Notes: generated from the letters alone by a model not told the origin. A stretch of 64,000 nt of DNA from Dehalococcoidia bacterium (GCA_965243495.1 CBDEUZ010000007.1:154450-218449), one strand, 5' to 3'. Counted from the stretch's first letter, positions 7,346 through 40,452 are shown. A program made the numbers and translations.

Positions 7346-7640
7346 ACCATCATCCCCGTCTTCATCTCGTCATTCCCGCGAAAGCGGAAATCCAGTGCGG
7401 CGCACAGCGCCGTCTCCTCCACTCAGGCTGAAGCCCGCCGCCTCCCCCGTTCGCCCTGAGCTTGTCGAAGGGGGCTCCCGAACGGGGAAATATACCTTCC
7501 CTCATTCCCGCGAAAGCGGGAATCCAGTGCGGCGCACAGCGCCGCCTCCCCCGTTCGCCCTGAGCTTGTCGAAGGGGGCTCCCGAACAGGGGAATATACC
7601 ACCCCTCATTCCACTGCCACGCCGGAACGTCCAGCACGAA
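7346..7640. repeat. Mosaic repeat array with internal tandem duplication of an A+B composite (about 105-125 nt unit x2)
   Basis: Unit 1 at 7371-7496 and unit 2 at 7497-7601 share A (cattcccgcgaaagcgg[g/a]aatccagtgcggcgcacagcgccg) followed by B (ccccgttcgccctgagcttgtcgaagggggctcccgaac). Unit 1 carries a 25-nt extra insert. Confidence 0.85.
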
Positions 7641-12498: not shown

Positions 12499-12850
12499 TC
12501 ATTCTGAGCATGTCGAAGAATCCCCGTTCGCCCTGAGCCTGTCGAAGGGGGCTCCTGAACGGGGAATCACTTATCCGTCATTCCGCGCCCCCATTCGTCA
12601 TTCCCGCGAAAGCGGGAATCCAGTGCCGCCCATAGGGCGGCCTCCCCTCTCCCTCGGGGAGAGGGCTAGGGTGAGGGCCCTGTCATTCCAGGCGCCCCTC
12701 CGTCATTCCGAGCGCAGCCGAGGAATCTAAAAACTCATTTGGCAAACATGCCGGAACGCGGTGCCAAACTTGGATGCCATTCAACCCTAATCGCGAACCT
12801 TGGCTGTAGGCACTGCCTACCCCACTCCAGCCACCCTTCCCTATAATGTC
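12497..12850. repeat. Mosaic repeat array (C-variant, B, A, D, C, E)
   Basis: Module C variant at 12497-12525, B at 12524-12570, A at 12596-12650, D (ctctccctcggggagagggctagggtgaggg) at 12650-12690, C at 12700-12740, E (..cttggctgtaggcactgcctaccc) at 12745-12840. Confidence 0.85.
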
Positions 12851-21199: not shown

Positions 21200-23077
21200 A
21201 TGTTAAAAACAATCCTGCTGCGCGTGACCCTCATGGCGCTTGCCGTCGTGTTCATGCTCATCGGCGTCGTCACCGCCCTTTTCCCGCGACCCGTCATCGA
21301 ACTCCTGGATCTCGGGCAGGTAAATGTCATCCTCCTCGGGATGTGGGGCGCTATGCTCGTTCTGCTCGGCGTCGGCGCATTCCTTGCAAACCGTGACCCC
21401 ATACGACACATCCTTTGGCTGCGGCTCACAATTGGATTCCTCTTTGGCATCGCGCTCTACGCCGGACTCGTGTACTGGGGCGGCGGCATCTCCCGGGACA
21501 CGGCAATCGTCCTAGCCGTCATCGGCATCGTCCCCGGCGTCGGGTTGCTTATCCTCTTCCCGCGCTCCCCGCGTTTCGTTTCCACCCGTGTTCGCTCCCC
21601 CGACGGTGTGCTCTTCACGGACGCGGACGACGGCGGCCTCTTCGTGCGCCGGAGCGGCGGCAGGTTCAACCCCTATGTCATCCGCCTCCCTCGCGAGCCC
21701 GCCATGCCGGACACGCATCACCGCCTCCACCCGACTACGGTCACAAACCCCTCCCGCGTCATGGTCGTCGGCGGCGGCGCGCGAGAACACGCCATCGCCG
21801 TCAAACTCCGGCAGAGCGCCGGACTCGAAGAACTCTACATGGCCCCAGGCAACGGCGGCACGGCATCGATCGCCGAGAATCTCCCCATATCAGCCACCGA
21901 CACCGAAGCCATCGTGCAGGCGGCACAGGAACGAAACGTCGAGCTTGTCATCATCGGCCCCGAAGCTCCGCTGGCCCTCGGCCTCGGCGACGCCGTCCGT
22001 GAGGCCGGTATCCTCTGCCTCGGCCCCTCACAAGAGGCGGCGCGCATTGAGTGGAGCAAGTCTTTCGCCAAGCAGGTCATGGACGACGCCGGAGTTCCCA
22101 CCGCCGCATGGACGAAATTTGACAACTACTCACAGGCCACGGAGTACGTCCGCGCGCACCCCGCTCCCCACGTCATCAAGGCGGACGGCCTCACAGCCGG
22201 AAAGGGCGTTGCCGTCTGCGAAACGGAACAGGATGCCGTCACATTCCTGCACCACGTCATGCGACTCCGCGACTTCGGCGAGTCAGGAGATTCCGTGGTG
22301 ATCGAGGAGACACTGTCGGGCGTCGAACTCTCCGTCTTTGCGTTCTGCGACGGCGAGCAGATGCTGCTCGTTCCCCCCGCCTGCGACTACAAGCGCATCT
22401 ACGACGACGATGAAGGTCCCAACACCGGCGGCATGGGATCATATAGCCCGCCGGAGTTCGTCACGGACAAACTCATGGCGGACATCCGTGACACCATCAT
22501 CCGCCCCGTCCTGCGCCGCATGGTTGAACTCGGCACGCCTTACAGCGGCATCCTTTACGCCGGACTCATGCTCACAGACGATGGCCCCAAGGTCATTGAA
22601 TTCAACTCCCGCATGGGCGACCCCGAGGCTCAGGTCGTCCTGCCCCGTATCACGTCCGATTTCCTGCAGCTCGCCGCCGCAACGGCCGCAGGCAAACTTG
22701 AAGACGTGCATCTTGAGTGGACGCCCCAGCCCGCCGTCGGCATCGCCATCGCTTCCGAGGGCTACCCCGGCGACTACCCAACCGGCCTGGAAATCACCGG
22801 ACTCAACACCCTTGACTACGATGCAATTGCCTTCCATGCCGGCACCCGCCTCGAACCCGCCCCTTCCGCTCACCCTGAGCCTGTCGAAGGGCCCAAACTC
22901 GTAACCGCCGGAGGCCGTGTCCTCACCATCACCGCGCTCGGCGACACGATGGAGCAGGCACGCGAGAAAGCCTACGCGAACGCCGCCCGCGTCCAGTTCC
23001 AGGGCGCGCACTACCGCAAAGACATCGCCCTCCGCGCCGTACCCGCTAAGCCCACCGAAGAACACCCTTCACCCTGA
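21200..23077 (+). CDS. purD: Phosphoribosylamine--glycine ligase with in-frame N-terminal 4-TM membrane extension
   Basis: Residues from MVVGGGAREHAIAV (ATG 21761) to the end are a complete PurD (438 aa). Upstream, the same frame is open back to ATG 21200 and encodes about 120 aa of clear TM helices with coding-like GC3. There is no stop between the two parts. A family B repeat fragment is embedded at 22855-22895 (..AHPEPVEG..). Confidence 0.8.
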   Translation: MLKTILLRVTLMALAVVFMLIGVVTALFPRPVIELLDLGQVNVILLGMWGAMLVLLGVGAFLANRDPIRHILWLRLTIGFLFGIALYAGLVYWGGGISRDTAIVLAVIGIVPGVGLLILFPRSPRFVSTRVRSPDGVLFTDADDGGLFVRRSGGRFNPYVIRLPREPAMPDTHHRLHPTTVTNPSRVMVVGGGAREHAIAVKLRQSAGLEELYMAPGNGGTASIAENLPISATDTEAIVQAAQERNVELVIIGPEAPLALGLGDAVREAGILCLGPSQEAARIEWSKSFAKQVMDDAGVPTAAWTKFDNYSQATEYVRAHPAPHVIKADGLTAGKGVAVCETEQDAVTFLHHVMRLRDFGESGDSVVIEETLSGVELSVFAFCDGEQMLLVPPACDYKRIYDDDEGPNTGGMGSYSPPEFVTDKLMADIRDTIIRPVLRRMVELGTPYSGILYAGLMLTDDGPKVIEFNSRMGDPEAQVVLPRITSDFLQLAAATAAGKLEDVHLEWTPQPAVGIAIASEGYPGDYPTGLEITGLNTLDYDAIAFHAGTRLEPAPSAHPEPVEGPKLVTAGGRVLTITALGDTMEQAREKAYANAARVQFQGAHYRKDIALRAVPAKPTEEHPSP

Positions 23078-23079
23078 AC

Positions 23080-23345
23080 CCATTTGAAAAGTCCCCGTTC
23101 GCCCTGAGCGTAGTCGAAGGGGGCTCTCGAACGGGGAGCCGCTCCCACTCTTACTTCGTCATTCCCGCGAAAGCGGGAATCCAGTACGGCGCGCAGCGCC
23201 GTCTAACTTGTCATTCCGAGCGTAGCCGAGGAATCTAAAGCCTCAATTGACCGCCAAAGCCGGAACGCGGCGGACAAACGCCACAAACCAACCTCACCTG
23301 AACGCGAACTTTGGCCGTAGGCACTGCCTACCCCACCCCCACTAA
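23080..23345. repeat. Mosaic repeat array (B, A, C, E)
   Basis: B at 23095-23140, A at 23155-23205, C at 23208-23250, E (..cgcgaactttggccgtaggcactgcctaccc) at 23255-23335. Confidence 0.85.
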
Positions 23346-28149: not shown

Positions 28150-28520
28150 GAACCTCTCACCCTAACCCCGTCGAAGGACTTTCGTCATTCCCGCGAAAGC
28201 GGGAATCCAGTGCGGCGCGCAGCGCCGTCTAACTTGTCATTCAGAGCGCAGCGAAGAATCTAAGGAGACTCATCTGGCAAGCATGCCGGAACGCGGCTAG
28301 CCGACTGCAGAGGCAAGACAACCCGGAACGCGAACCTTGGCCGTAGGCACTGCCTACCACGTTCGCCCTGAGCCTGTCGAAGGGGGCTCCCGAACGGGGA
28401 CCTAGTCCCGCCTCCCATGTCATTCCGAGCGCAGTCGAGGAATCCAAAGCCTCACCTGTGCCTTCCCCCTCATTCCGAGCGCAGCCGCGTAATCCGAAAT
28501 CGGATTCCTCAGCCCAAACC
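28150..28520. repeat. Mosaic repeat array (A, C, E, B, C, C-variant)
   Basis: A at 28185-28232, C at 28238-28275, E at 28280-28350, B at 28360-28410, C at 28420-28455. A variant C at 28462-28500 has a different internal hairpin (aatccgaaatcggatt). Confidence 0.85.
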
Positions 28521-31484: not shown

Positions 31485-32095
31485 CTCTCCCCCATCGTCA
31501 TTCCCGCGAAAGCATGCCCCGTACTCTGATACGGGGCGGCAATGGATTCTCGCCCGCAGGACGGCCTCTTCCGTCATTCCGAGCGCAGTCGAGAAATCCA
31601 AAGGCTCAATAGACCGCCAAAGCGGGAACGCGGTGTGCAACATACACAGGTCATTCAGAGTTCGACCGCGAACCTTGGCTGTAGGCACTGCCTACCCGAG
31701 AGCCGTAGCGCAGCTACCCGTTCGCCCTGAGCCTGTCGAAGGGGGCTCCCGAACGGGGATCTAGCCCCCCTCGTCATTCCCGCTAAAGCATGTCCCGTAC
31801 TTGATACGGGGCGGGAATCCAGTGCGGTCCGTAGGGCAGCCTCTTCTGTCATTCCGAGCGCAGTCGAGGAATCCAAAGACTCATATGGCAAGCATGCTGG
31901 AACGCGGGTGCCAGACTGCACTGGCCAGACGACCCGGAACGCGAACTAAAAGCCGTAGCGCAGCTACCCGTTCGCCCTGAGCCTGTCGAAGGGGGATCCC
32001 GAACGGGGGTCTAGCCCCTCTTCGTCATTCCCGCGAAAGCGGGAATCCAGTGCGGCGCGCAGCGCCGCCCAACCTCACCCCTTTGCTATCATCAC
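31485..32095. repeat. Mosaic repeat array, about 610 nt, the longest in the window (A-variants with nested hairpin, C, E, F, B, A ...)
   Basis: A-variant at 31497-31545 and 31785-31850 carries a second hairpin (atg[c/t]cccgtact[c]tgatacgggg) inserted in the A loop. C at 31562-31600 and 31845-31885, E at 31620-31700, B at 31720-31765 and 31965-32010, A at 32025-32080. Confidence 0.85.
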
Positions 32096-32099
32096 CAAT

Positions 32100-33371
32100 A
32101 TGAAAAAGACGGTCAGCGATATCGACGTGTCCGGCGCGCGATGCCTCGTGCGCGTCGATTTCAACGTTCCGTTCGAACCCGGCACAACCACAATCTCCGA
32201 CGACTCCCGCATCCGCGCCGCCCTACCAACCATCAACTACCTTCGTGAGCGGGGCGCGCGCGTCATCCTCGCAACCCATGTGGGCAGACCAAAGGGCATC
32301 GACGACGGCTTGCGCGTAGCGCCCATGGCCGCACGGCTCTCCGAACTCCTCTCATCGCCCGTCACTGTCGCGCCCGACTCCATCGGCGAGGAAACCGAAA
32401 AGCTCGCCGCCGCGCTCGGCCCCGGTGATGTCCTCTTCCTTGAAAACACGAGGTTCCACCCCGAAGAGGAGAAGAACGCTCCTGATCACTCAGCCGCCCT
32501 CGCCCGTCTTGCGGACTTCTATGTGAACGATGCCTTTGGGTCCGCCCACCGCGCCCACGCCTCCACGGAGGGCGTCGCCCATCTCCTGCCCGCCGTCGCG
32601 GGGTTCCTCCTTGATAAGGAGATCCGCATGTTGGGCGGCATCCTTGAATCGCCCCGCCGTCCGCTGGCAACGCTCATGGGCGGCGCAAAGGTCGGCGACA
32701 AGATGGCCGTCATGGAGCGACTCATCGAGAGCTCGGACATGCTCATCGTCGGCGGTGGCATGGCCGCCGCGTTCCTGGAAGCCCGTGGAATGCGAACCGG
32801 TAAGAGCCTGCTCGAAGCGGACGGCCCGCAGATGGCAGGGCGAATCGAAAGCGCCGCAAGGGCCCGAGGCATCCAACTGCTGATTCCGACGGACGTGATC
32901 GTGGCAACCGAACTCTCCGCCGATGCCCCCGTGTCCGCCGTAAGCAGCGACGCCATCCCTGCAGATGGAATGCTCCTGGACATCGGCCCCGAGACGCGCG
33001 ATACCTACACGCGCGCCTTGCGACTCTGCCAGACAGTACTTTGGAACGGCCCGATGGGTGTATTCGAGTACGACCAATTCGCCGGAGGCACACGCGCTAT
33101 CGCCGAATGCCTCGCCCAACACGCCGGCGCTCCCACCTCCCTTCGTCATTCCCGCGAAAGCGGGAATCCAGTGCGGCGCGCAGCGCCGCCACCTTCTCAC
33201 GCCCCACACGGCGCAACCGTCGTCGTTGGCGGCGGCTCGACGGCTGAGGCCGTCGACGCCCTCGGATATGCCGACGCCATGACCCATGTGTCCACCGGCG
33301 GCGGCGCGGCCCTCGAATTCCTTGAAGGCCGTGTCCTCCCCGGCATCGCCGCCCTCCAGGACATGGACTGA
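32100..33371 (+). CDS. pgk: phosphoglycerate kinase carrying an in-frame repeat-element insertion
   Basis: Full-length PGK (..VRVDFNVP.., ..VWNGPMGVFE.., ..GGGSTAEAV..STGGGAALEFLEG..). Between ..ECLAQHAGA and TVVVGGG, 27 extra residues (PTSLRHSRESGNPVRRAAPPPSHAPHG) are encoded by an exact copy of repeat module A at 33143-33189. Confidence 0.9.
   Translation: MKKTVSDIDVSGARCLVRVDFNVPFEPGTTTISDDSRIRAALPTINYLRERGARVILATHVGRPKGIDDGLRVAPMAARLSELLSSPVTVAPDSIGEETEKLAAALGPGDVLFLENTRFHPEEEKNAPDHSAALARLADFYVNDAFGSAHRAHASTEGVAHLLPAVAGFLLDKEIRMLGGILESPRRPLATLMGGAKVGDKMAVMERLIESSDMLIVGGGMAAAFLEARGMRTGKSLLEADGPQMAGRIESAARARGIQLLIPTDVIVATELSADAPVSAVSSDAIPADGMLLDIGPETRDTYTRALRLCQTVLWNGPMGVFEYDQFAGGTRAIAECLAQHAGAPTSLRHSRESGNPVRRAAPPPSHAPHGATVVVGGGSTAEAVDALGYADAMTHVSTGGGAALEFLEGRVLPGIAALQDMD
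33143..33189 (+). repeat. Module A copy inside the pgk coding frame
   Basis: cgtcattcccgcgaaagcgggaatccagtgcggcgcgcagcgccgcc is identical to the intergenic copy at 32035-32080. Total inserted length keeps the frame open. Confidence 0.9.
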
Positions 33372-34140
33372 ACTTTTCTCTGCCATTCCAAGCGCAACTA
33401 AAGGGTCCCCGTTCGGGAGCCCCCTCGTCATTCCCGCGAAAGCGGGAATCCAGTGCGGCGCGTAGCGCCGCCATTAATCCCCTCTCCCTGAGGGGGAGGG
33501 TTAGGGTGGGGGTGACTCCCCCGTCATTCCGAGCGCAGCCGAGGAATCCAAAGACTCCACAGACCGCCAAAACCGGAACGCGGCACACCAAACCCAACGA
33601 CGACCCTCCCCGGCATCGCCGCCCTCCAGGACGCGGACTAGTCCCCGTTCGCCCTGAGCCTGTCGAAGGGGGCTCCCGAACGGGGAACCAACATCCCCTC
33701 CCCCTCGTCATTCCCGCGAAAGCGGGAATCCAGTGCGGCGCGCTGCGCCGCCATTAATCCCCTCTCCCTCAGGGAGAGGGTTAGGGTGAGGGGGGCTGTA
33801 ATTCCGAGCGCCCTTACTGTCATTCCGAGCGCAGTCGAGGAATCCAAAGCCTCAATAGACCGCCAGAGCAGGAACGCGCATCCGAACCCAACGGCCGCCC
33901 GCACCGGAACGTGAACTTTGGCCGTAGCGCAGCTACCGAGAGCCGTAACGCAGTTACCCCGTTCGCCCTGAGCTTGTCGAAGGGGGCTCCCGAACGGGGA
34001 CCTAGCTCCCCTTCGTCATTCCGGCGCAGGCCGGAATCCACCCCGTGGCCCGTAGGGCCACAACACTCTCCTGCAAACCTTTGTGCTATTCTCAAATTCG
34101 GTGTACAGCGGCATCAAGAGTACAAAGGAATAATTTGAGG
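33372..34140. repeat. Mosaic repeat array (A, D, C, E, B, A, D, C, E, F, B, A-variant)
   Basis: Two successive composite blocks A-D-C-E at about 33420-33600 and 33705-33900, then F+B at 33911-34005 and an A-variant (cgtcattccggcgcaggccggaatcc) at 34015-34045. The D copies contain (G3N3)3G3 tracts. Confidence 0.85.
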
Positions 34141-35196
34141 ATGGAAACCTTTGACGAAGTAATACGGGCAGCGCTGGAGGCAGCCCGGCAGCGTGAAGGC
34201 TATATCGGCCCGCTTGAGGACTTTACGATTGCCCTTGCTAGCAGAGACTGGCAGGAGAGAGACCCCGTTATTGAAGGAATACTCACCGACATCAGGGCTG
34301 GCTCACAAGAACCTCTGACACTATGGCATGCACAGCATCATGGTGTTGAGGACACGATTCTCCAGAAGTGGAACGAACCCCTGCGACTTCTTGATCTCCT
34401 GATTGTCCTTGCTGGGCAATTCGGCACAGATTTCTACAGGGAACGCATAGCAACAGTGGAAGACGGTGGTGAGCGTTTACTGCTCACGGTGCTCACTGAG
34501 CTACACGCCAGAGCTTGCCAAATATCCTCCGCTATACATCTGCTGCTGCGTTCAGGATATGCGGATGACGCTCACGCGCGATGGCGCACACTGCACGAGA
34601 TTTCAGTAATAGCCAATTTTGTGAAGGACGGCGGGGCATCACTTGCTGAAAGATACCAAGAGCATGGAACCATACAGCGGTGCAAGGAATTACGTGCATT
34701 CCGTGAACGTAGTCAGTTATTCGGGAACGAGCCGGAATGGACTGTTGCTGACCATTGGTTCGAGGAACGCTATGAATTGCTTATACAAAAGTATGGCTCG
34801 TCCTTCAAGGAGGACTACGGCTGGGCTGCGGATGCACTCGGCAAGAAGAAGCCAACTTTCAGAGACATTGAGAATAACGTGAAGATAGCCGATACAGTGC
34901 CTATGGCGCTGATGCGCGCGCAATACAGGATGGCAAGCGCAAATGTTCATGCATCCGCACACGGCACTCAATTTCGGTTAGGACTGGGTAAGCATAGTAG
35001 CACTGGAATCCTGTTTGGCCCTAGTATTCAAGGTCTAGGTGACCCAGGGTTTGCGACTGCAAATGCTCTTTGTGAAACGGCACTTACGCTTCTTCAGACA
35101 AGATCGAATGAAGACGATGTCGTGCGCATCTCGATACTGACGAATCTCACCGAGACAACTTCGAACGTATTCCTCACAACGCCGGACGATGATTAG
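34141..35196 (+). CDS. Hypothetical protein (351 aa), lower-GC, first gene of the two-gene island
   Basis: RBS GAGG before ATG 34141. No recognisable catalytic family from sequence. It contains an R-x4-H stretch (RWRTLHE), weakly reminiscent of HEPN-type motifs. GC is about 52% against about 65% in flanking DNA. Confidence 0.55.
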   Translation: METFDEVIRAALEAARQREGYIGPLEDFTIALASRDWQERDPVIEGILTDIRAGSQEPLTLWHAQHHGVEDTILQKWNEPLRLLDLLIVLAGQFGTDFYRERIATVEDGGERLLLTVLTELHARACQISSAIHLLLRSGYADDAHARWRTLHEISVIANFVKDGGASLAERYQEHGTIQRCKELRAFRERSQLFGNEPEWTVADHWFEERYELLIQKYGSSFKEDYGWAADALGKKKPTFRDIENNVKIADTVPMALMRAQYRMASANVHASAHGTQFRLGLGKHSSTGILFGPSIQGLGDPGFATANALCETALTLLQTRSNEDDVVRISILTNLTETTSNVFLTTPDDD

Positions 35197-35240
35197 GCTG
35201 GTAACCGTCCTGAACTTGTCCATGAAAGAGGCAGCACCCT

Positions 35241-36884
35241 ATGACGACCGACTGGAAAAACAAACTCTACTTCGGCGATAACCTCCCCATCATGCGGGAG
35301 CACATCCCGGACGAGTCCGTCGATCTCATCTACCTCGATCCGCCCTTCAACTCCAACGCCACCTACAACGTCCTCTTCCGCGAGCACGATTCCTCGGAGT
35401 CCGCCGCCCAGATTCAGGCATTCGACGATACCTGGCACTGGAGCACGGACGCCGAATGGCATTACCAGCAGGTCGTCACCACCGGCCCGCGAAAACTCGC
35501 GGACATGCTTGGGGCCATGCGCACATTCCTCGGCCAGAACGACATGATGGCCTACCTCACCATGATGGCCCCGCGCATGGTGGAACTGCACCGCGTCCTC
35601 AAGCCCACCGGCAGCATCTACCTCCATTGCGACCCCACCGCCAGCCACTACCTCAAGCTCCTCATGGACGCCGTGTTCGGGCCGACAAGGTTCAGGAACG
35701 AAATCACGTGGAAACGCTCTCATCCCAAGGGATTAGCATTCACTCGCTTCGCATCAAACCATGACGTGATTTTGGTGTACGGCTCCACCAGCGATGCCAC
35801 CTGGAATGCAATGTATACGGAGAACCCTCGCGCCCACGAGCAATACAACCTCATTGAAGAAGGCACAGGACGTAGATACCAGTTGACCAGTCTATTGAAT
35901 CCAAATCCAGATCGCCCAAACCTGACATACGAATTCAAGGGCGTAACGAGAGTATGGCGATGGACAAAAGAACGCATGGAACAAGCTGATAAAGACGGGC
36001 TAATCGTTGTTCCGCGTGAGGGACAAGGGGTTCCGAGACTGAAGAGGTATCTTGATAAACAGGAAGGGATTCCAGTAGGCGACACTTGGGATGACATCCC
36101 AATTGCGGCTGGCAAAGAGCGCCTCGGCTATCCCACCCAGAAGCCCGAGGCCCTGCTTGAACGCATCATCTCCGCCTCCAGCAACGAGGGCGATGTCATC
36201 CTCGACCCCTTCTGCGGCTGCGGCACCGCCGTCGCCGTCGCGGAACGCCTGAACCGCAAGTGGATCGGCATCGACGTCACCCATCTCGCCATCTCCCTCA
36301 TGCGCAGCCGCCTGCGTGACTCGTTCGGCGATGACCTGTCCGACTATGAGGTCGTCGGCTCCCCCGCGGACGCGGAGAGCGCCCGCGCACTGTCGCTTGA
36401 GGGCGGCAACACCGGCCGATACCAGTTCGAATACTGGGCGCTCGGCCTGGTTGAGGCCCGCCCTGCCCGCGACATGAAGAGGGGCGCGGACGCCGGTATC
36501 GACGGCTACATCAACTTCTTTGACGACAACTCCGGCAAAGCCAAGTCCGTCATCGTCCAGGTCAAGAGCGGTAACGTGGGCCGCAACGTCATCGCCACCC
36601 TGAAGGGCGACATGGAACGCGAAAACGCCGAAATGTCTCTGCTGATCACCTTGCGTCCGCCCACCAAACCGATGCTTGATGAGGCTGCGTCCGCCGGATT
36701 CTACACGCCGGAGGCCTACCCGGACCGACAATTTCCCCGCGTCCAGATCGCCACCATTGAGGACATCCTCAACGGCAACGGCCCCGCGATACCCCAACTC
36801 GGCCTCTCCCAACCCCCGACCTTCCGCCGCGCCCCCCGCCGCCGCCGAACAGACTCCACATCCCCCCGCATGAACATCGGCTAG
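35241..36884 (+). CDS. Beta-class N6-adenine/N4-cytosine DNA methyltransferase fused to a C-terminal Mrr-like (PD-(D/E)xK) nuclease-type domain
   Basis: Motif IV LIYLDPPFNS near the N-terminus, motif I/X ..GYPTQKPEALLERII..VILDPFCGCGTAV.. after a central target-recognition region (beta-class order). The C-terminal approximately 190 aa carry ..DAGIDGYINFF..SVIVQVKSGNVGRNVIATLKG..LLITL.., matching the Mrr catalytic-domain pattern. The central TRD segment (about 35700-36110) is about 48% GC while both flanks are about 65%. Confidence 0.8.
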   Translation: MTTDWKNKLYFGDNLPIMREHIPDESVDLIYLDPPFNSNATYNVLFREHDSSESAAQIQAFDDTWHWSTDAEWHYQQVVTTGPRKLADMLGAMRTFLGQNDMMAYLTMMAPRMVELHRVLKPTGSIYLHCDPTASHYLKLLMDAVFGPTRFRNEITWKRSHPKGLAFTRFASNHDVILVYGSTSDATWNAMYTENPRAHEQYNLIEEGTGRRYQLTSLLNPNPDRPNLTYEFKGVTRVWRWTKERMEQADKDGLIVVPREGQGVPRLKRYLDKQEGIPVGDTWDDIPIAAGKERLGYPTQKPEALLERIISASSNEGDVILDPFCGCGTAVAVAERLNRKWIGIDVTHLAISLMRSRLRDSFGDDLSDYEVVGSPADAESARALSLEGGNTGRYQFEYWALGLVEARPARDMKRGADAGIDGYINFFDDNSGKAKSVIVQVKSGNVGRNVIATLKGDMERENAEMSLLITLRPPTKPMLDEAASAGFYTPEAYPDRQFPRVQIATIEDILNGNGPAIPQLGLSQPPTFRRAPRRRRTDSTSPRMNIG

Positions 36885-37277
36885 CCCTGCCCACCCTGAG
36901 CCTGTCGAAAGGCCTTCCACTTCCCGTTCGCCCTGAGCCTGTCGAAGGGGGCTCCCGAACGGGTACCTAGCCCCCTCGTCATTCCCGCGAAAGCGGGAAT
37001 CCAGTGCGGCGCGCAGCGCCGCCTCTCATGTCATTCCGAGCACAGCCGAGGAATCTAAAGACTCCACAGACCGCCAAAGCCGGAACGCGACACACCAGCC
37101 TCACGCACAAATCGACGCTGATCGCGAGCTATGGTTGTAGGCACTGCCTACCCGCCCAAAGCCGGAACGCGGCACACCAAACCCACGAACCGTTCTCGCC
37201 GGAACGTGAACTTTGGCCGTAGCGCAGCTACCCGAGAGCCGTAACGCAGTTACCCCCGCTATACTGTCCACACGCAT
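36885..37277. repeat. Mosaic repeat array (B-partial, B, A, C, E, E, F)
   Basis: B fragments at 36895-36965, A at 36975-37020, C at 37025-37065, E at 37065-37200, F (gaactttggccgtagcgcagctacccgagagccgtaacgcagttacccc) at 37198-37255. The F copy is a direct repeat of 33905-33961 on the other side of the island. Confidence 0.85.
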
Positions 37278-38495
37278 ATGGCCGACTTTGAACTGATCAA
37301 GAGCCTCGCCCGCAAGACGGACACAAAGGTCGTCCTGCTTGTCATGGACGGCTTGGGTGGCATTCCACACCCAAAGACACTGCGCACCGAACTGGAGGTT
37401 GCCGAGAAGGATAATCTCGATCGCCTCGCGCGCTCCTCACAGACCGGCCTGTCCATCCCCGTCGCGCACGGCATCACGCCCGGCAGTGGACCTGGCCACC
37501 TTGCCCTCTTCGGGTATGACCCCATCAAGTACCTCATCGGCCGTGGCATCCTTGAAGCTCTTGGGTTGGACATGGATGTCCGCGACGGAGACGTTGCCGC
37601 CCGAGGAAACTTCTGCACCATCGGCGAAGACGGCACCATTACCGACCGCCGCGCCGGGCGCATCGCAACCGATCTCAACCGTGAGCTGACCGAGCAGCTG
37701 AATGCCATCTCCGTCGAAAATGCGCAGCCCATCATCGCCTCGGGCCGCGAGCATCGCTTTGCCCTGCTTTTTCGACCGGAGGACGGAGGCCCCCAGCTCA
37801 GCGATGCCCTGACGGACAGTGACCCCCAAAGAGAAGGTTTGGCTCCCTTAGCGGTCACCCCAACTGAGCCATGGGCGGATAACACCGCCAACATTGTGAA
37901 TTCCTTCCTTAGGGCTGCAATGTCCGTTATTGCCGACGCCCACCCCGCAAACGGCCTTGTTCTACGCGGTTTTGCGACAATACCGGACCTCCCGCAAATG
38001 TCGGACGTTTACGCCCTGAATCCTGCCGCAATCGCCGCCTATCCAATGTACCGGGGCCTCGCGCAGCTGGTGGGCATGAACGTCGTGCCAACCGGCGAAA
38101 CATTCGAAGACGAAATCCAAACCGCCCGAGACATCTGGGACGATCACGACTTCTTTTTCATCCACTACAAGTACACGGACAGCACCGGCGAGGACGGCGA
38201 CTACGATGCTAAGGTAGCCGCCATCGAGCAGCTGGATCGCGCCCTGCCCGCCCTGCTGGACCTGGATCCTGATGTGTTGATCGTGGCGGGGGATCATTCA
38301 ACTCCCAGCGCCATGGCCGCCCACAGCTGGCACCCGGTTCCCGTGATGATTCGGTCGCGGCACATTGCTGCCGGCTTTTCGGAGGCGTTCACGGAACGGG
38401 AATGCGCGAAGGGAATGCTGGGAACCATGGCGGCAACAGACATCATGCCGATAGCCCTCGCAAATGCCGGGAAACTGGACAAATTCGGCGCTTAG
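37278..38495 (+). CDS. apgM: 2,3-bisphosphoglycerate-independent phosphoglycerate mutase, archaeal type
   Basis: 405 aa with ..VVLLVMDGLGG.. N-terminus and ..LIVAGDHSTPS.. metal-binding region characteristic of ApgM-type iPGM. Confidence 0.85.
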   Translation: MADFELIKSLARKTDTKVVLLVMDGLGGIPHPKTLRTELEVAEKDNLDRLARSSQTGLSIPVAHGITPGSGPGHLALFGYDPIKYLIGRGILEALGLDMDVRDGDVAARGNFCTIGEDGTITDRRAGRIATDLNRELTEQLNAISVENAQPIIASGREHRFALLFRPEDGGPQLSDALTDSDPQREGLAPLAVTPTEPWADNTANIVNSFLRAAMSVIADAHPANGLVLRGFATIPDLPQMSDVYALNPAAIAAYPMYRGLAQLVGMNVVPTGETFEDEIQTARDIWDDHDFFFIHYKYTDSTGEDGDYDAKVAAIEQLDRALPALLDLDPDVLIVAGDHSTPSAMAAHSWHPVPVMIRSRHIAAGFSEAFTERECAKGMLGTMAATDIMPIALANAGKLDKFGA

Positions 38496-38521
38496 AGACC
38501 CTGCATTGTGAAAAAGTGAAC

Positions 38522-39292
38522 ATGACATCTGAACGCAGGCCGCTGATTGCCGGCAATTGGAAAATGAACACGACGCTGGCAGAGGCGCGAATACTTGCCT
38601 ACAACATCGTTCATATGGTTGGCGTTCCCAAGGACGTTGACGTGGCCGTGTGCCCGCCCTTCGTTTCCCTACCCATCGTTGCCGAGGCATTGCGTGGATC
38701 ACCAGTTGCGCTTGGCGCGCAGAACCTGTATCCGGCAGAGTCAGGCGCCTACACGGGAGAGGTTGCGCCCAACATGCTGCAAGGATTGTGCCGTTACGTG
38801 ATTGTTGGACACTCCGAGCGCCGCGCCTATTTCGCTGAGGCTGACGAATTCGTCAATGCAAAGGTTCGCACGGCCCTTGAATACGACCTCACTCCAATCA
38901 TGTGCGTCGGCGAAACCCTACAACAGCGAGAGGCGGGCGAAACGGAAGACGTCCTCAGGACACAAACATCCGGTGGTTTGGCTGACGTGGACGATGTACC
39001 GGCAGTTGTCATCGCCTACGAACCCGTGTGGGCTATCGGCACCGGTGTGGCTGCGACGCCCGACGATGCGCGCGAGGGAATCGCCGTCATCCGCAACACA
39101 GTTGCCGAGGCGCATGGGCAAGACACAGCTGACTCCGTCCGCATCCTGTACGGCGGCTCCATGAACCCGCAGAACGTTGCATCACTGCTTGAACAATCGG
39201 GCATTGACGGTGGGCTGATCGGCGGCGCGGCGCTCAACGCAGAGCAGTTCGTTGCACTCGTGCGGGCGGCGGAAGAACACGAGCGCGAATAA
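38522..39292 (+). CDS. tpiA: triose-phosphate isomerase
   Basis: MTSERRPLIAGNWKMN.., ..VGHSERR.., ..AYEPVWAIGTG.. The ORF track start at 38402 is an upstream extension. Confidence 0.9.
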   Translation: MTSERRPLIAGNWKMNTTLAEARILAYNIVHMVGVPKDVDVAVCPPFVSLPIVAEALRGSPVALGAQNLYPAESGAYTGEVAPNMLQGLCRYVIVGHSERRAYFAEADEFVNAKVRTALEYDLTPIMCVGETLQQREAGETEDVLRTQTSGGLADVDDVPAVVIAYEPVWAIGTGVAATPDDAREGIAVIRNTVAEAHGQDTADSVRILYGGSMNPQNVASLLEQSGIDGGLIGGAALNAEQFVALVRAAEEHERE

Positions 39293-39315
39293 CCCTTGCT
39301 CCATCCCAATTCCAG

Positions 39316-39344
39316 TTAGAACAGTCCGTTCCGTTGTCTATACT
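39316..39344 (+). promoter_or_regulatory. Putative sigma-70-type promoter for the Gfo/Idh/MocA gene
   Basis: TTAGAA - 17 nt - TATACT in an unusually AT-rich spacer about 100 nt upstream of ATG 39451. Confidence 0.3.
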
Positions 39345-39450
39345 GAACGCAGGCAAATTGCATAGCCAAACAACATCCATAGCAACCTGACTCACTACTA
39401 CTGCCACATCGTTCTTAGAGAGCAGTCATTTCCAGGAGGAAAGCATCAGC

Positions 39451-40452
39451 ATGTCCACAGGATCCACTCTTCGTATCGGCCTCGTTGGCGCAGGTCGATT
39501 CTCTCAGCGGCGTGTCGTTCCGGAACTCGCAAAGGTTCCGGGGATTGAGTTCGTAGCTGTCGCGAATAACAGCGCCGAGTCCACTGCTCGTGTCGCCGAG
39601 CAATTCAACGTTGCCACACAAGCATCCTCCTGGCAGGACGTTGTTTCCTCGCCGGATGTGGATCTTGTCTTCAACGGGACCCAGGCGCCGCAGCATCGCG
39701 ATATCCTGCTTGGCGCACTGGAGAACGATAAACATCTGCTCACAATGAACCCGCTGGCCATGACAGGCGCGGAGGGACGTGAAATCGTGGCGGCGCTTGA
39801 GGCACGTCCGCAGCTAAAGGCGCGGCAATATCCGGCATTTCCCGGCGGCCCATATGACCGTGAAGATGCGCTTGTCCTGCGGCTTCTGTCTGAGGGGCGC
39901 ATCGGACGCGTTTTGAGCGCGGAGATGCAGTGGCACACACCCTTCCTCGCCTTCGGCAGCTACTTTGACATCCTGAATCGATGGCTTGGACGGCACCGCC
40001 GTTTGCTGGTCGTTCGCAAGCAGCACGAGGTGGATAACCGGCGCGTCGGATTCTCAGCCATCGTGGCCGAACTCGATGATGACGTTGCCGTGCGGTATTT
40101 GCATGACAACCTCGCGCCGAAAGCCACACACAATGCCCACATCGCCCTGCACGGCGAGGAGGGCTCCATCATTATTGAGGGTTATCCTGCCGACCCTTTC
40201 TCGTCTGTACGGATCGCTTCAGGCGACGGCGAGGCTGAGGTCGTGCCGGTGCCGGACGACCTACGGCAGGCGTATGAAGATGAACGACGCGTCAATATCG
40301 AGGAGCAGTTCCTTGGATGGGTGACGGGCGGCGCCGAACCGACTCCACTCCTCCTGACCTTACAGGAGGGCCTGCAATCCATTGACGCGGCGGAGGCGTT
40401 TGTCTCCTCAATGCGGCAGGGCGGCGCGTGGGTGGAGCTGCCACAAGACTAG
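39451..40452 (+). CDS. Gfo/Idh/MocA family oxidoreductase
   Basis: N-terminal Rossmann LRIGLVGAGRFSQRRVVPEL. 333 aa. RBS AGGAGGA. Confidence 0.85.
   Translation: MSTGSTLRIGLVGAGRFSQRRVVPELAKVPGIEFVAVANNSAESTARVAEQFNVATQASSWQDVVSSPDVDLVFNGTQAPQHRDILLGALENDKHLLTMNPLAMTGAEGREIVAALEARPQLKARQYPAFPGGPYDREDALVLRLLSEGRIGRVLSAEMQWHTPFLAFGSYFDILNRWLGRHRRLLVVRKQHEVDNRRVGFSAIVAELDDDVAVRYLHDNLAPKATHNAHIALHGEEGSIIIEGYPADPFSSVRIASGDGEAEVVPVPDDLRQAYEDERRVNIEEQFLGWVTGGAEPTPLLLTLQEGLQSIDAAEAFVSSMRQGGAWVELPQD

Follow-up and report, generated by a model that had tools for sequence, protein, structure and literature searches.

Several described restriction-modification (R-M) systems associate a nuclease, a DNA methylase and a target recognition domain (TRD). 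In the Type IIG/IIC enzymes (MmeI, BpuSI) and the Type ISP enzymes (LlaGI, whose nuclease belongs to the Mrr family) the three are carried by one polypeptide that works without a partner and changes its specificity by TRD exchange; their methylase is of the gamma class and their nuclease stands at the N-terminus, with a helicase motor in addition in Type ISP. The Type III Mod methylases (EcoP15I Mod, the Helicobacter protein 6k0w, Mbo45V Mod) are of the beta class, i.e. motif IV precedes motif I; mod alleles have a central variable TRD between conserved blocks, and Type III systems have an adjacent gene for the Res helicase-nuclease. Mrr, MspJI and AspBHI have a modification reader and no methylase. 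CcrM is a single-copy methylase of one fixed specificity that cannot bind DNA without an additional C-terminal domain. Genes of the HEPN type are also found embedded with R-M genes, as for PrrC with EcoprrI; PMC3710099 links at least 16 HEPN clades to R-M systems and proposes that they work like PrrC-EcoprrI, with a back-up role in abortive infection. Here we describe a locus in a window of 64,000 nucleotides (the whole stretch of DNA that was analysed) from a Dehalococcoidia bacterium (GCA_965243495.1 CBDEUZ010000007.1:154450-218449). Positions 34,141 to 36,884 of its plus strand carry two genes, the first for a 351-aa protein of the Pfam family DUF5677 and the second for a 547-aa fusion of a beta-class methylase with a nuclease-like domain. 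The locus is a probable phage-defence pair in a sponge-type Dehalococcoidia genome. Its best reading, which we hold to have an even chance of being right, is a single-chain R-M-like enzyme accompanied by a PrrC-style, HEPN-like accessory effector.

The methylase-nuclease fusion gene (35241..36884, +) is an intact open reading frame (ORF). The constant N-terminal part of its product (aa 1-155, 35241..35705), near-invariant in alignment, contains motif IV, DPPF (aa 33-36). It is followed by the TRD (aa 156-285, 35706..36095), a swapped cassette that is hypervariable in alignment and low in GC at third codon positions (GC3), and by a second constant part, recognised in alignment (36096..36392), with PTQKP and the S-adenosylmethionine motif I, DPFCGCGT (aa 322-329). 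Then comes a Mrr/MspJI-type PD-(D/E)xK-like domain (aa ~385-510, 36393..36770), recognised by Pfam, in the structural model and by Foldseek, and finally a basic C-terminal tail, conserved in alignment (…PTFRRAPRRRR…; 36771..36884 with the stop codon). The order DPPF, TRD, PTQKP, DPFCGCGT is that of the beta class and, because the motif is DPPF rather than SPPF, we infer that the methylase targets N6-adenine. Pfam assigns N6_N4_Mtase (PF01555) to the protein at 3e-42 and, at aa 394-484, Mrr_cat at 1.3e-8 (35.4 bits for a cutoff of 21).

The closest solved sequence to the methylase core is CcrM (6pbd, 1.4e-19), residues 179-274 of which align with segment 36096-36392. In Foldseek the best structural matches of the AlphaFold2 (AF2) model are EcoP15I Mod (4zcf, E 2e-13), the Mod-like 6k0w, CcrM and RsrI; the first non-methylase matches are MspJI 4f0p (prob 0.98) and AspBHI 4oc8 (prob 0.99), both with weak E-values. 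The full-length model is of moderate quality, with a predicted local distance difference test (pLDDT) of 68, and its TRD is poorly modelled; specificity is therefore not inferred from it. The C-terminal domain (aa 390-510) is modelled as an alpha-beta-beta-beta-alpha-beta core at pLDDT 74-90, and the tail beyond it is disordered in the model (pLDDT < 50).

The key residues of the C-terminal domain are E397, D417, D421 and Q440-V-K442; of these, E397, D421 and Q440-x-K442 correspond to the catalytic set of a PD-(D/E)xK nuclease (a helix-1 Glu, Asp and (D/E/Q)xK). In 127 diverse members of the family F396, W399, G415, D417, G419, D421, G422, V441, K442 and G444 are essentially invariant. Active variants of this kind are known: D...QxK in MspJI, QxK also in Mrr, and SxK in Cfr10I. 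The ratio of non-synonymous to synonymous divergence (dN/dS) of the C-terminal domain is 0.04-0.15 against six relatives of the same lineage and 0.20-0.33 against more distant loci, indicating purifying selection; the N-terminal constant part gives 0.02-0.13 against the same six relatives and 0.13-0.31 against loci L085-L087. An initial annotation of this DNA had proposed a methylase fused to a PD-(D/E)xK-type domain. The above-threshold Mrr_cat score, the near-invariance of D417, D421 and K442 and the structural matches to MspJI and AspBHI bear this out, and all the motifs it had quoted (DPPF, PTQKP, DPFCGCGT, DAGIDGY, IVQVKSG, and Rx4H at aa 147-152 of the first protein) are present. Nuclease activity of the fused domain is possible.

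With the Type III Mod proteins the fusion has in common its class, its motif order and its central variable TRD, and the MTase_III models of PADLOC match it strongly. Unlike in Type III systems, no Res helicase-nuclease gene is adjacent, and a nuclease-like domain is fused instead to the C-terminus of the methylase. As in the Type IIG/IIC/ISP enzymes a nuclease-type domain, a methylase and a TRD stand on one polypeptide, but here a motor is missing, the methylase is of the beta class and the predicted nuclease-like domain stands at the C-terminus. The C-terminal domain resembles Mrr, MspJI and AspBHI by its Mrr_cat match, by its fold match to the catalytic domains of the latter two and by its D...QxK; it differs in being joined to a methylase and, across the wider fusion family, in the frequent occurrence of SxK and of a Gln in helix 1. 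Among solved proteins CcrM is nearest to the core in sequence, but the fusion family, unlike CcrM, is multicopy, mobile and variable in its TRD. In the literature we found no description of a family of Mod-like beta-class methylases that end in a Mrr/MspJI-type domain.

The family is large. The 547-aa protein gave more than 8,000 matches, the top 120 of which are 64-84% identical to it and have the same architecture throughout. With the C-terminal 182 aa alone, 2,289 cluster representatives (50% identity) were recovered, 992 of them at E <= 1e-10, and the domain is always C-terminal. Nine of ten representatives checked are N6_N4_Mtase fusions, the tenth being a 275-aa entry with the nuclease-like domain only. 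In a 46-member alignment aa 1-155 and 286-547 are nearly invariant and aa 156-285 hypervariable. Clustering of the TRDs of 90 methylase genes gave 27 types; that of the window is unique among those loci and is common to P0003 and P0093. The 80 best genomic loci come almost all from Dehalococcoidia metagenome-assembled genomes, many of them sponge or coral bins, and several genomes have 2-3 methylase copies. Among them are OZ242281.1 (L032, L039, L042) and OZ241912.1 (L013, L016; 452-493 kb), in which two copies lie 27 kb apart in inverted orientation, an arrangement in which inversion or TRD exchange could take place.

The surroundings of these genes vary widely. Two methylases outside the window carry its TRD (L171 and L172), both without DUF5677; that of L172 is a solitary insertion among housekeeping genes. 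That of L171 is flanked by duplicated pairs of 381-aa and 252-aa genes (L171:1-1196 and L171:7009-8912), a composite-transposon-like context that adjoins an NgoMIV-type R-M system with Vsr. Plasmid homologues (43-47% identity) have upstream a zeta toxin gene, an annotated 'restriction endonuclease', or nothing. The genes neighbouring 79 of these methylases are almost all unrelated, and their clustering left 97 singletons. Genes downstream of the methylases are housekeeping, and those upstream form three groups: housekeeping genes, ORFs without family, and conflict-type domains (CAP12-PCTIR_TIR, AbiJ_NTD4, HEPN as a weak match, LPD29, SLFN_AlbA_2, AAA_21, DDE transposases). A same-strand ORF lies within 110 nt upstream at 33/79 loci and downstream at 14/79. 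No co-variation of TRD type with the upstream partner was found, and in a PADLOC scan of the upstream partners methylase models dominate the output. Given the TRD types, the multiple copies, the solitary insertions and the varied neighbours, the methylase is an autonomous, mobile and diversifying module.

In the window this module lies between pgk (32100-33371, 5' of the pair) and apgM (37278-38495, 3' of it), and it adjoins pgk in six related genomes, each of ~2 Mb. L011 (the closest relative, with a pgk 94% identical), L001/L005 and L012 have it between pgk and apgM; in L009 it is downstream of pgk, on a contig that ends before apgM. In L003/L008 and L015 it is just upstream of pgk, and pgk and apgM are directly adjacent. 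The close neighbourhood of pgk and apgM that the initial annotation expected is thus seen in L003 and L015; in L011, L001 and L012 the methylase occupies the gap. The upstream genes differ between relatives (TIR in L003, AbiJ_NTD4 in L015 and L007, LPD29 in L011), as do the TRDs; at a separate locus, L017, the gene upstream of the methylase has a weak HEPN match. The DUF5677 segment (~34039-35250) and the TRD (35717-36116) have no nucleotide counterpart in L011, L001, L012, L009, L003 or L015, whereas 466 nt at the 5' end of the methylase (35251-35716) are 91-96% identical to L011, L012, L009, L003 and L015, for 81-90% in the flanking housekeeping genes. Synonymous divergence (dS) is 0.15-0.5 in the constant methylase parts (0.15-0.44 in the 5' 466 nt) vs 0.4-1.3 in most flanking genes. 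Such low divergence points to a recombination anchor or to conversion between gene copies; the strong codon bias of the 5' part (GC3 0.88) may contribute to it.

Base composition has the same pattern. For a background of 0.72 +/- 0.07, GC3 is 0.51 in both the DUF5677 gene and the TRD, 0.88 in the N-terminal part of the methylase and 0.84 in its C-terminal part; the methylase gene is thus itself a compositional chimera. The low-GC, recently inserted two-gene island proposed at first has to be narrowed accordingly. The pgk-apgM gap measures 3.9 kb and low GC covers only part of it, i.e. the DUF5677 gene and the TRD and not the constant parts of the methylase. Since the methylase is next to pgk in six relatives, in four of them in the pgk-apgM gap, and its constant parts have a GC3 of 0.84-0.88, it is not a recent island, judged by the very condition that the initial annotation had set. 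As judged from sequence comparison, only the DUF5677 gene and the TRD would be recent acquisitions, on a resident methylase scaffold. The pgk side is best read as a lineage-specific hot spot bearing a small defence islet. Swapping of TRD and partner at a fixed address was not found described in the literature for the methylase-fusion family.

The first gene of the pair (34141..35196, +) is an intact ORF of 351 aa. Its start at ATG 34141 is backed by homologues of 351 aa, and nucleotide similarity to L085-L087 starts only at 34124-34140. The initial annotation saw in its product no recognisable family; the protein nevertheless matches Pfam DUF5677 (PF18928), a family to which no function is assigned, at E 3.5e-24 (86.2 bits for a gathering cutoff of 27.1) over aa 117-277, i.e. 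profile positions 3-156 of 166. A search gave 1,078 homologues (E <= 1e-3); PF18928 is present in each of the 120 listed. The AF2 model consists entirely of helices (pLDDT 88), and many His, Arg, Glu and Asn residues are invariant. The Rx4-6H motif of the HEPN superfamily is present at the N-terminus of the modelled helix 141-193, as R147-W-R-T-L-H152 (RWRTLH; codons 34579..34596, +): all of 45 homologues retain R147, W148, R149 and E153, and at least 90% of them keep H152. The DUF5677 protein, whose core is HEPN-like, is a likely member of the HEPN superfamily, an assignment that we did not find described in the literature for DUF5677. Its dN/dS of 0.17-0.25 against L085, L086 and L087 indicates purifying selection. 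A preprint reports that DUF5677 is enriched near serine-recombinase defence markers (PMC12632615).

In the window and at the loci of its three closest homologues (64-68% identical), DUF5677 is followed by the methylase in 4/4 cases. The flanks differ between these loci and the spacer is conserved in all three homologues, so that order and spacer are kept over a dS of ~1 in four contexts. The linked methylases carry different TRDs (window vs L087). In L085 the TRD of the linked methylase is interrupted by a transposase of the IS1595 family (L085:3492-5662), DUF5677 itself being intact; the other two linked methylases, from assemblies covered 3-4x, show frameshifts or degradation. Of 80 distant DUF5677 loci, L147 alone has the methylase fusion adjacent, in reverse order, and L095 and L162 have other methylase-like sequences near DUF5677. 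The remaining neighbours include GmrSD, Abi_C, nSTAND3, OLD/AAA_15, SEFIR, integrases, insertion sequence (IS) elements and housekeeping genes. DUF5677 is also found on bacterial and haloarchaeal plasmids. In Bacillus phage SPR (SPbeta-like), spr_109 (L173:4797-5918) is a DUF5677 homologue, with 28% identity over 84% of the query, that sits among small hypothetical genes. The DUF5677-methylase pair is thus a clade-specific linkage and not a generally conserved system: DUF5677 is present at 0/80 of the best methylase loci, and methylases with the window TRD stand alone or in other contexts.

A defence role, already advanced in the initial annotation, is still the most plausible one. In the preferred reading the TRD would pick the site, the methylase would mark the host DNA, and the fused nuclease domain would cut DNA that is unmarked. 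DUF5677 would be an HEPN-like RNase acting as second-line abortive-infection effector once the restriction enzyme is blocked, in the manner of PrrC with EcoprrI. Recombination in the highly conserved methylase segments would replace the TRD and the upstream partner gene, and the islet would consist of two modules each able to stand alone elsewhere. Such an accessory effector fits a known pattern, since at least 16 HEPN clades accompany R-M systems (PMC3710099), and AbiJ-type partners occur at the same hot spot in the relatives of the window. There are also differences: DUF5677 is not among the HEPN clades named in the passages of PMC3710099 drawn on here, it comes without an ABC ATPase, its HEPN membership is putative, and its partner enzyme is not of Type I as in PrrC-EcoprrI.

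Several results weigh against this reading. For the first protein, profile and structure comparisons assign DUF5677 and no HEPN family: it has no match to an HEPN-clan Pfam family at E <= 1, a profile search of PDB sequences gave no HEPN, and Foldseek of its model against the PDB gave only insignificant generic bundles. The residue after R147 is moreover an invariant Trp and not a polar one (N, D or H). Apart from one DUF5677 ORF mentioned below, we know of no experimentally tested member of the methylase-fusion family or of DUF5677. HEPN families usually have a polar residue after the motif Arg (PMC3710099), and a DUF5677 ORF assayed in Enterococcus faecalis did not protect it against six phages (PMC12632615). 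For the fused domain, the Pfam 'inactive REase' model NA-iREase1 scores 4.1e-8 on the same aa 394-484, nearly as well as Mrr_cat. Over the 127 members position 397, the helix-1 Glu, is mostly Gln (Q in 90, E in 36), and position 440, never acidic, has S 73 times and Q 54 times, so that the signature of the family is D...(Q/S)xK. As to the pair, DUF5677 was found at none of the 80 best methylase loci, and methylase or Mrr_cat domains occur in only 2/47 upstream neighbours of distant DUF5677 genes, one of the two, L147, being a confirmed relative of the fusion. Since most methylase loci are without DUF5677 and most DUF5677 genes without methylase, functional coupling of the two is not required by the data.

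It is on much of this that the best-surviving rival draws, which we consider somewhat unlikely: an orphan methylase that serves epigenetic or anti-restriction purposes and whose REase-fold domain is dead and only binds DNA, in the manner of the additional domain of CcrM, next to an unrelated DUF5677 gene. The almost equal score of NA-iREase1, the Gln at position 397 and the Ser or Gln at position 440 are in line with a dead domain; so are, for an orphan, the many solitary methylase copies and the maintenance of the gene beside pgk across a lineage with a dS of 0.4-1.3, which is more resident-like than defence-like. That DUF5677 is usually without methylase and that the tested ORF lacked phage defence (PMC12632615) would make its presence here incidental. 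But D417, D421 and K442 are near-invariant across 127 diverse members. TRD diversity, multiple copies, IS disruption and carriage on plasmids and transposons are moreover typical of R-M systems and not of housekeeping methylases, and the conservation of the DUF5677-methylase order and spacer in four contexts over a dS of ~1 is at odds with an unrelated neighbour.

A second rival makes of the pair an obligate two-component system, with the methylase fusion as sensor or immunity subunit and the upstream gene as an exchangeable effector toxin, i.e. DUF5677 here and TIR, AbiJ-type, HEPN, zeta toxin or Schlafen elsewhere. We regard this as improbable. The excess of close same-strand ORFs upstream (33/79 vs 14/79) speaks for it, and so do the conflict-type upstream domains CAP12-PCTIR_TIR, AbiJ_NTD4, HEPN, LPD29, SLFN_AlbA_2 and AAA_21, the zeta toxin or 'restriction endonuclease' genes upstream on plasmids, and the linkage of DUF5677 in 4/4 close homologues and in L147. 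Inactive REase domains such as NA-iREase1 have been proposed as sensors, and the name that Pfam gives to NA-iREase1 denotes an inactive REase domain that accompanies NACHT proteins. However, many methylases are solitary or follow housekeeping genes (luciferase-like, GCV_T, nucleoside hydrolase), which makes an obligate system less likely; their upstream neighbours are nearly all singletons without a common adaptor, DUF5677 is mostly without any methylase, and in L085 it is intact while the methylase is split by an IS.

Finally, that DUF5677 is the cognate restriction endonuclease of a classical Type II pair is extremely improbable: the two genes are indeed adjacent, co-oriented and 44 nt apart, and Type II endonucleases are very diverse and often without family, but this candidate is effectively ruled out by its all-helical fold (no PD-(D/E)xK, HNH, GIY-YIG or PLD fold), by the TRDs (DUF5677-linked methylases differ in theirs, the window TRD is found elsewhere without DUF5677, and among the neighbours of 79 methylases no endonuclease gene co-varies with methylase specificity) and by its distribution (DUF5677 is intact beside an IS-disrupted methylase, and in most cases has no methylase nearby).

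The two genes lie on the same strand, as first annotated, and are separated by a spacer of 44 nt (35197..35240, +) in which a Shine-Dalgarno-like GAAAGAGG (35224-35231) is found 9 nt 5' of the methylase ATG. A promoter and terminator consensus scan of 33300-37400 returned 0 promoters and 0 terminators; the two genes are probably co-transcribed. All the neighbours in the interval 25.6-42.3 kb are housekeeping genes (ABC transporter, CobD, aminotransferase, GHMP kinase, PGK, apgM, TIM, GFO/IDH/MocA oxidoreductase, MiaA, DapF), and no helicase, Res subunit or integrase is among them, in agreement with the claim that a separate Res or helicase is missing; nor is a helicase among the called genes of the relatives' loci examined. 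Rfam and tRNA scans gave no match near the locus, the nearest tRNAs being at 27.8 kb. PADLOC has no defence model for the DUF5677 protein and recognises the methylase by generic methylase models only.

The pair is bordered by two intergenic repeat mosaics, one upstream (33372..34045, +), in its native context and outside the cassette, and one downstream (36885..37277, +), likewise in its native context. Each includes a copy of a ~57-nt module termed F (33905-33961 and 37198-37255). These F modules, noted in the initial annotation as flanking the island, are real repeats (families D6 and D9 of D1-D10), but they are not specific to the island. Some ten intergenic regions of the window contain repeat modules, e.g. 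at 2733-2935, 7369-7576, 12525-12727, 22867-23320, 28184-28494, 31489-32050, 33137-34040 and 36885-37255, every copy being on the plus strand and one lying inside pgk. They are concentrated at 900-37300 and almost missing from 37.3-64 kb, and Rfam has no family for them. The region 37139-39500 is collinear with L011, a genome without DUF5677 that has the downstream F module in the orthologous position. Insertion or exchange through the F repeats, as had been suggested, is thus not supported: the modules are dispersed, all on the plus strand, and present at orthologous sites without DUF5677. As a side observation, an in-frame insertion of 26 aa in pgk (33131-33208) copies the dispersed repeat GTCATTCCCGCGAAAGCGGGAATCCAG...; L011 has it too, and the pgk of L001 and L015 does not. 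The Pfam PGK match falls into two stretches. The repeat element appears to be tolerated inside this essential glycolytic gene.

Beyond the preferred reading, a broader and rather doubtful proposal is that these fusions are an unrecognised class of single-chain R-M enzymes, descended from Type III Mod, beta-class, lacking a helicase and ending in an MspJI/Mrr-type nuclease. Their conserved 5' and 3' segments might anchor swaps of the TRD and of an upstream plug-in effector (HEPN-like DUF5677, TIR, AbiJ-type, zeta toxin), so that reduced symbiont genomes would possess a defence locus that diversifies itself. The components are already in databases, and the linkage of HEPN to R-M is a described theme. 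If the fused domain is inactive, the locus comes down to a hypothetical gene beside an orphan methylase whose DNA-binding domain is unusual. If it cuts DNA, ~1,000 clusters now labelled 'site-specific DNA-methyltransferase' would be restriction enzymes encoded by a single gene, in a so far undescribed layout and with many ready-made specificities, since 27 TRD types are found in only 90 genes. For DUF5677, which is present across bacteria, archaea and a phage, the locus provides a first testable hypothesis of function, that of an HEPN-like effector. The pgk hot spot shows one fixed address put to repeated use, with parts of a gene and the gene beside it being exchanged, a way in which small symbiont genomes may diversify their defence.

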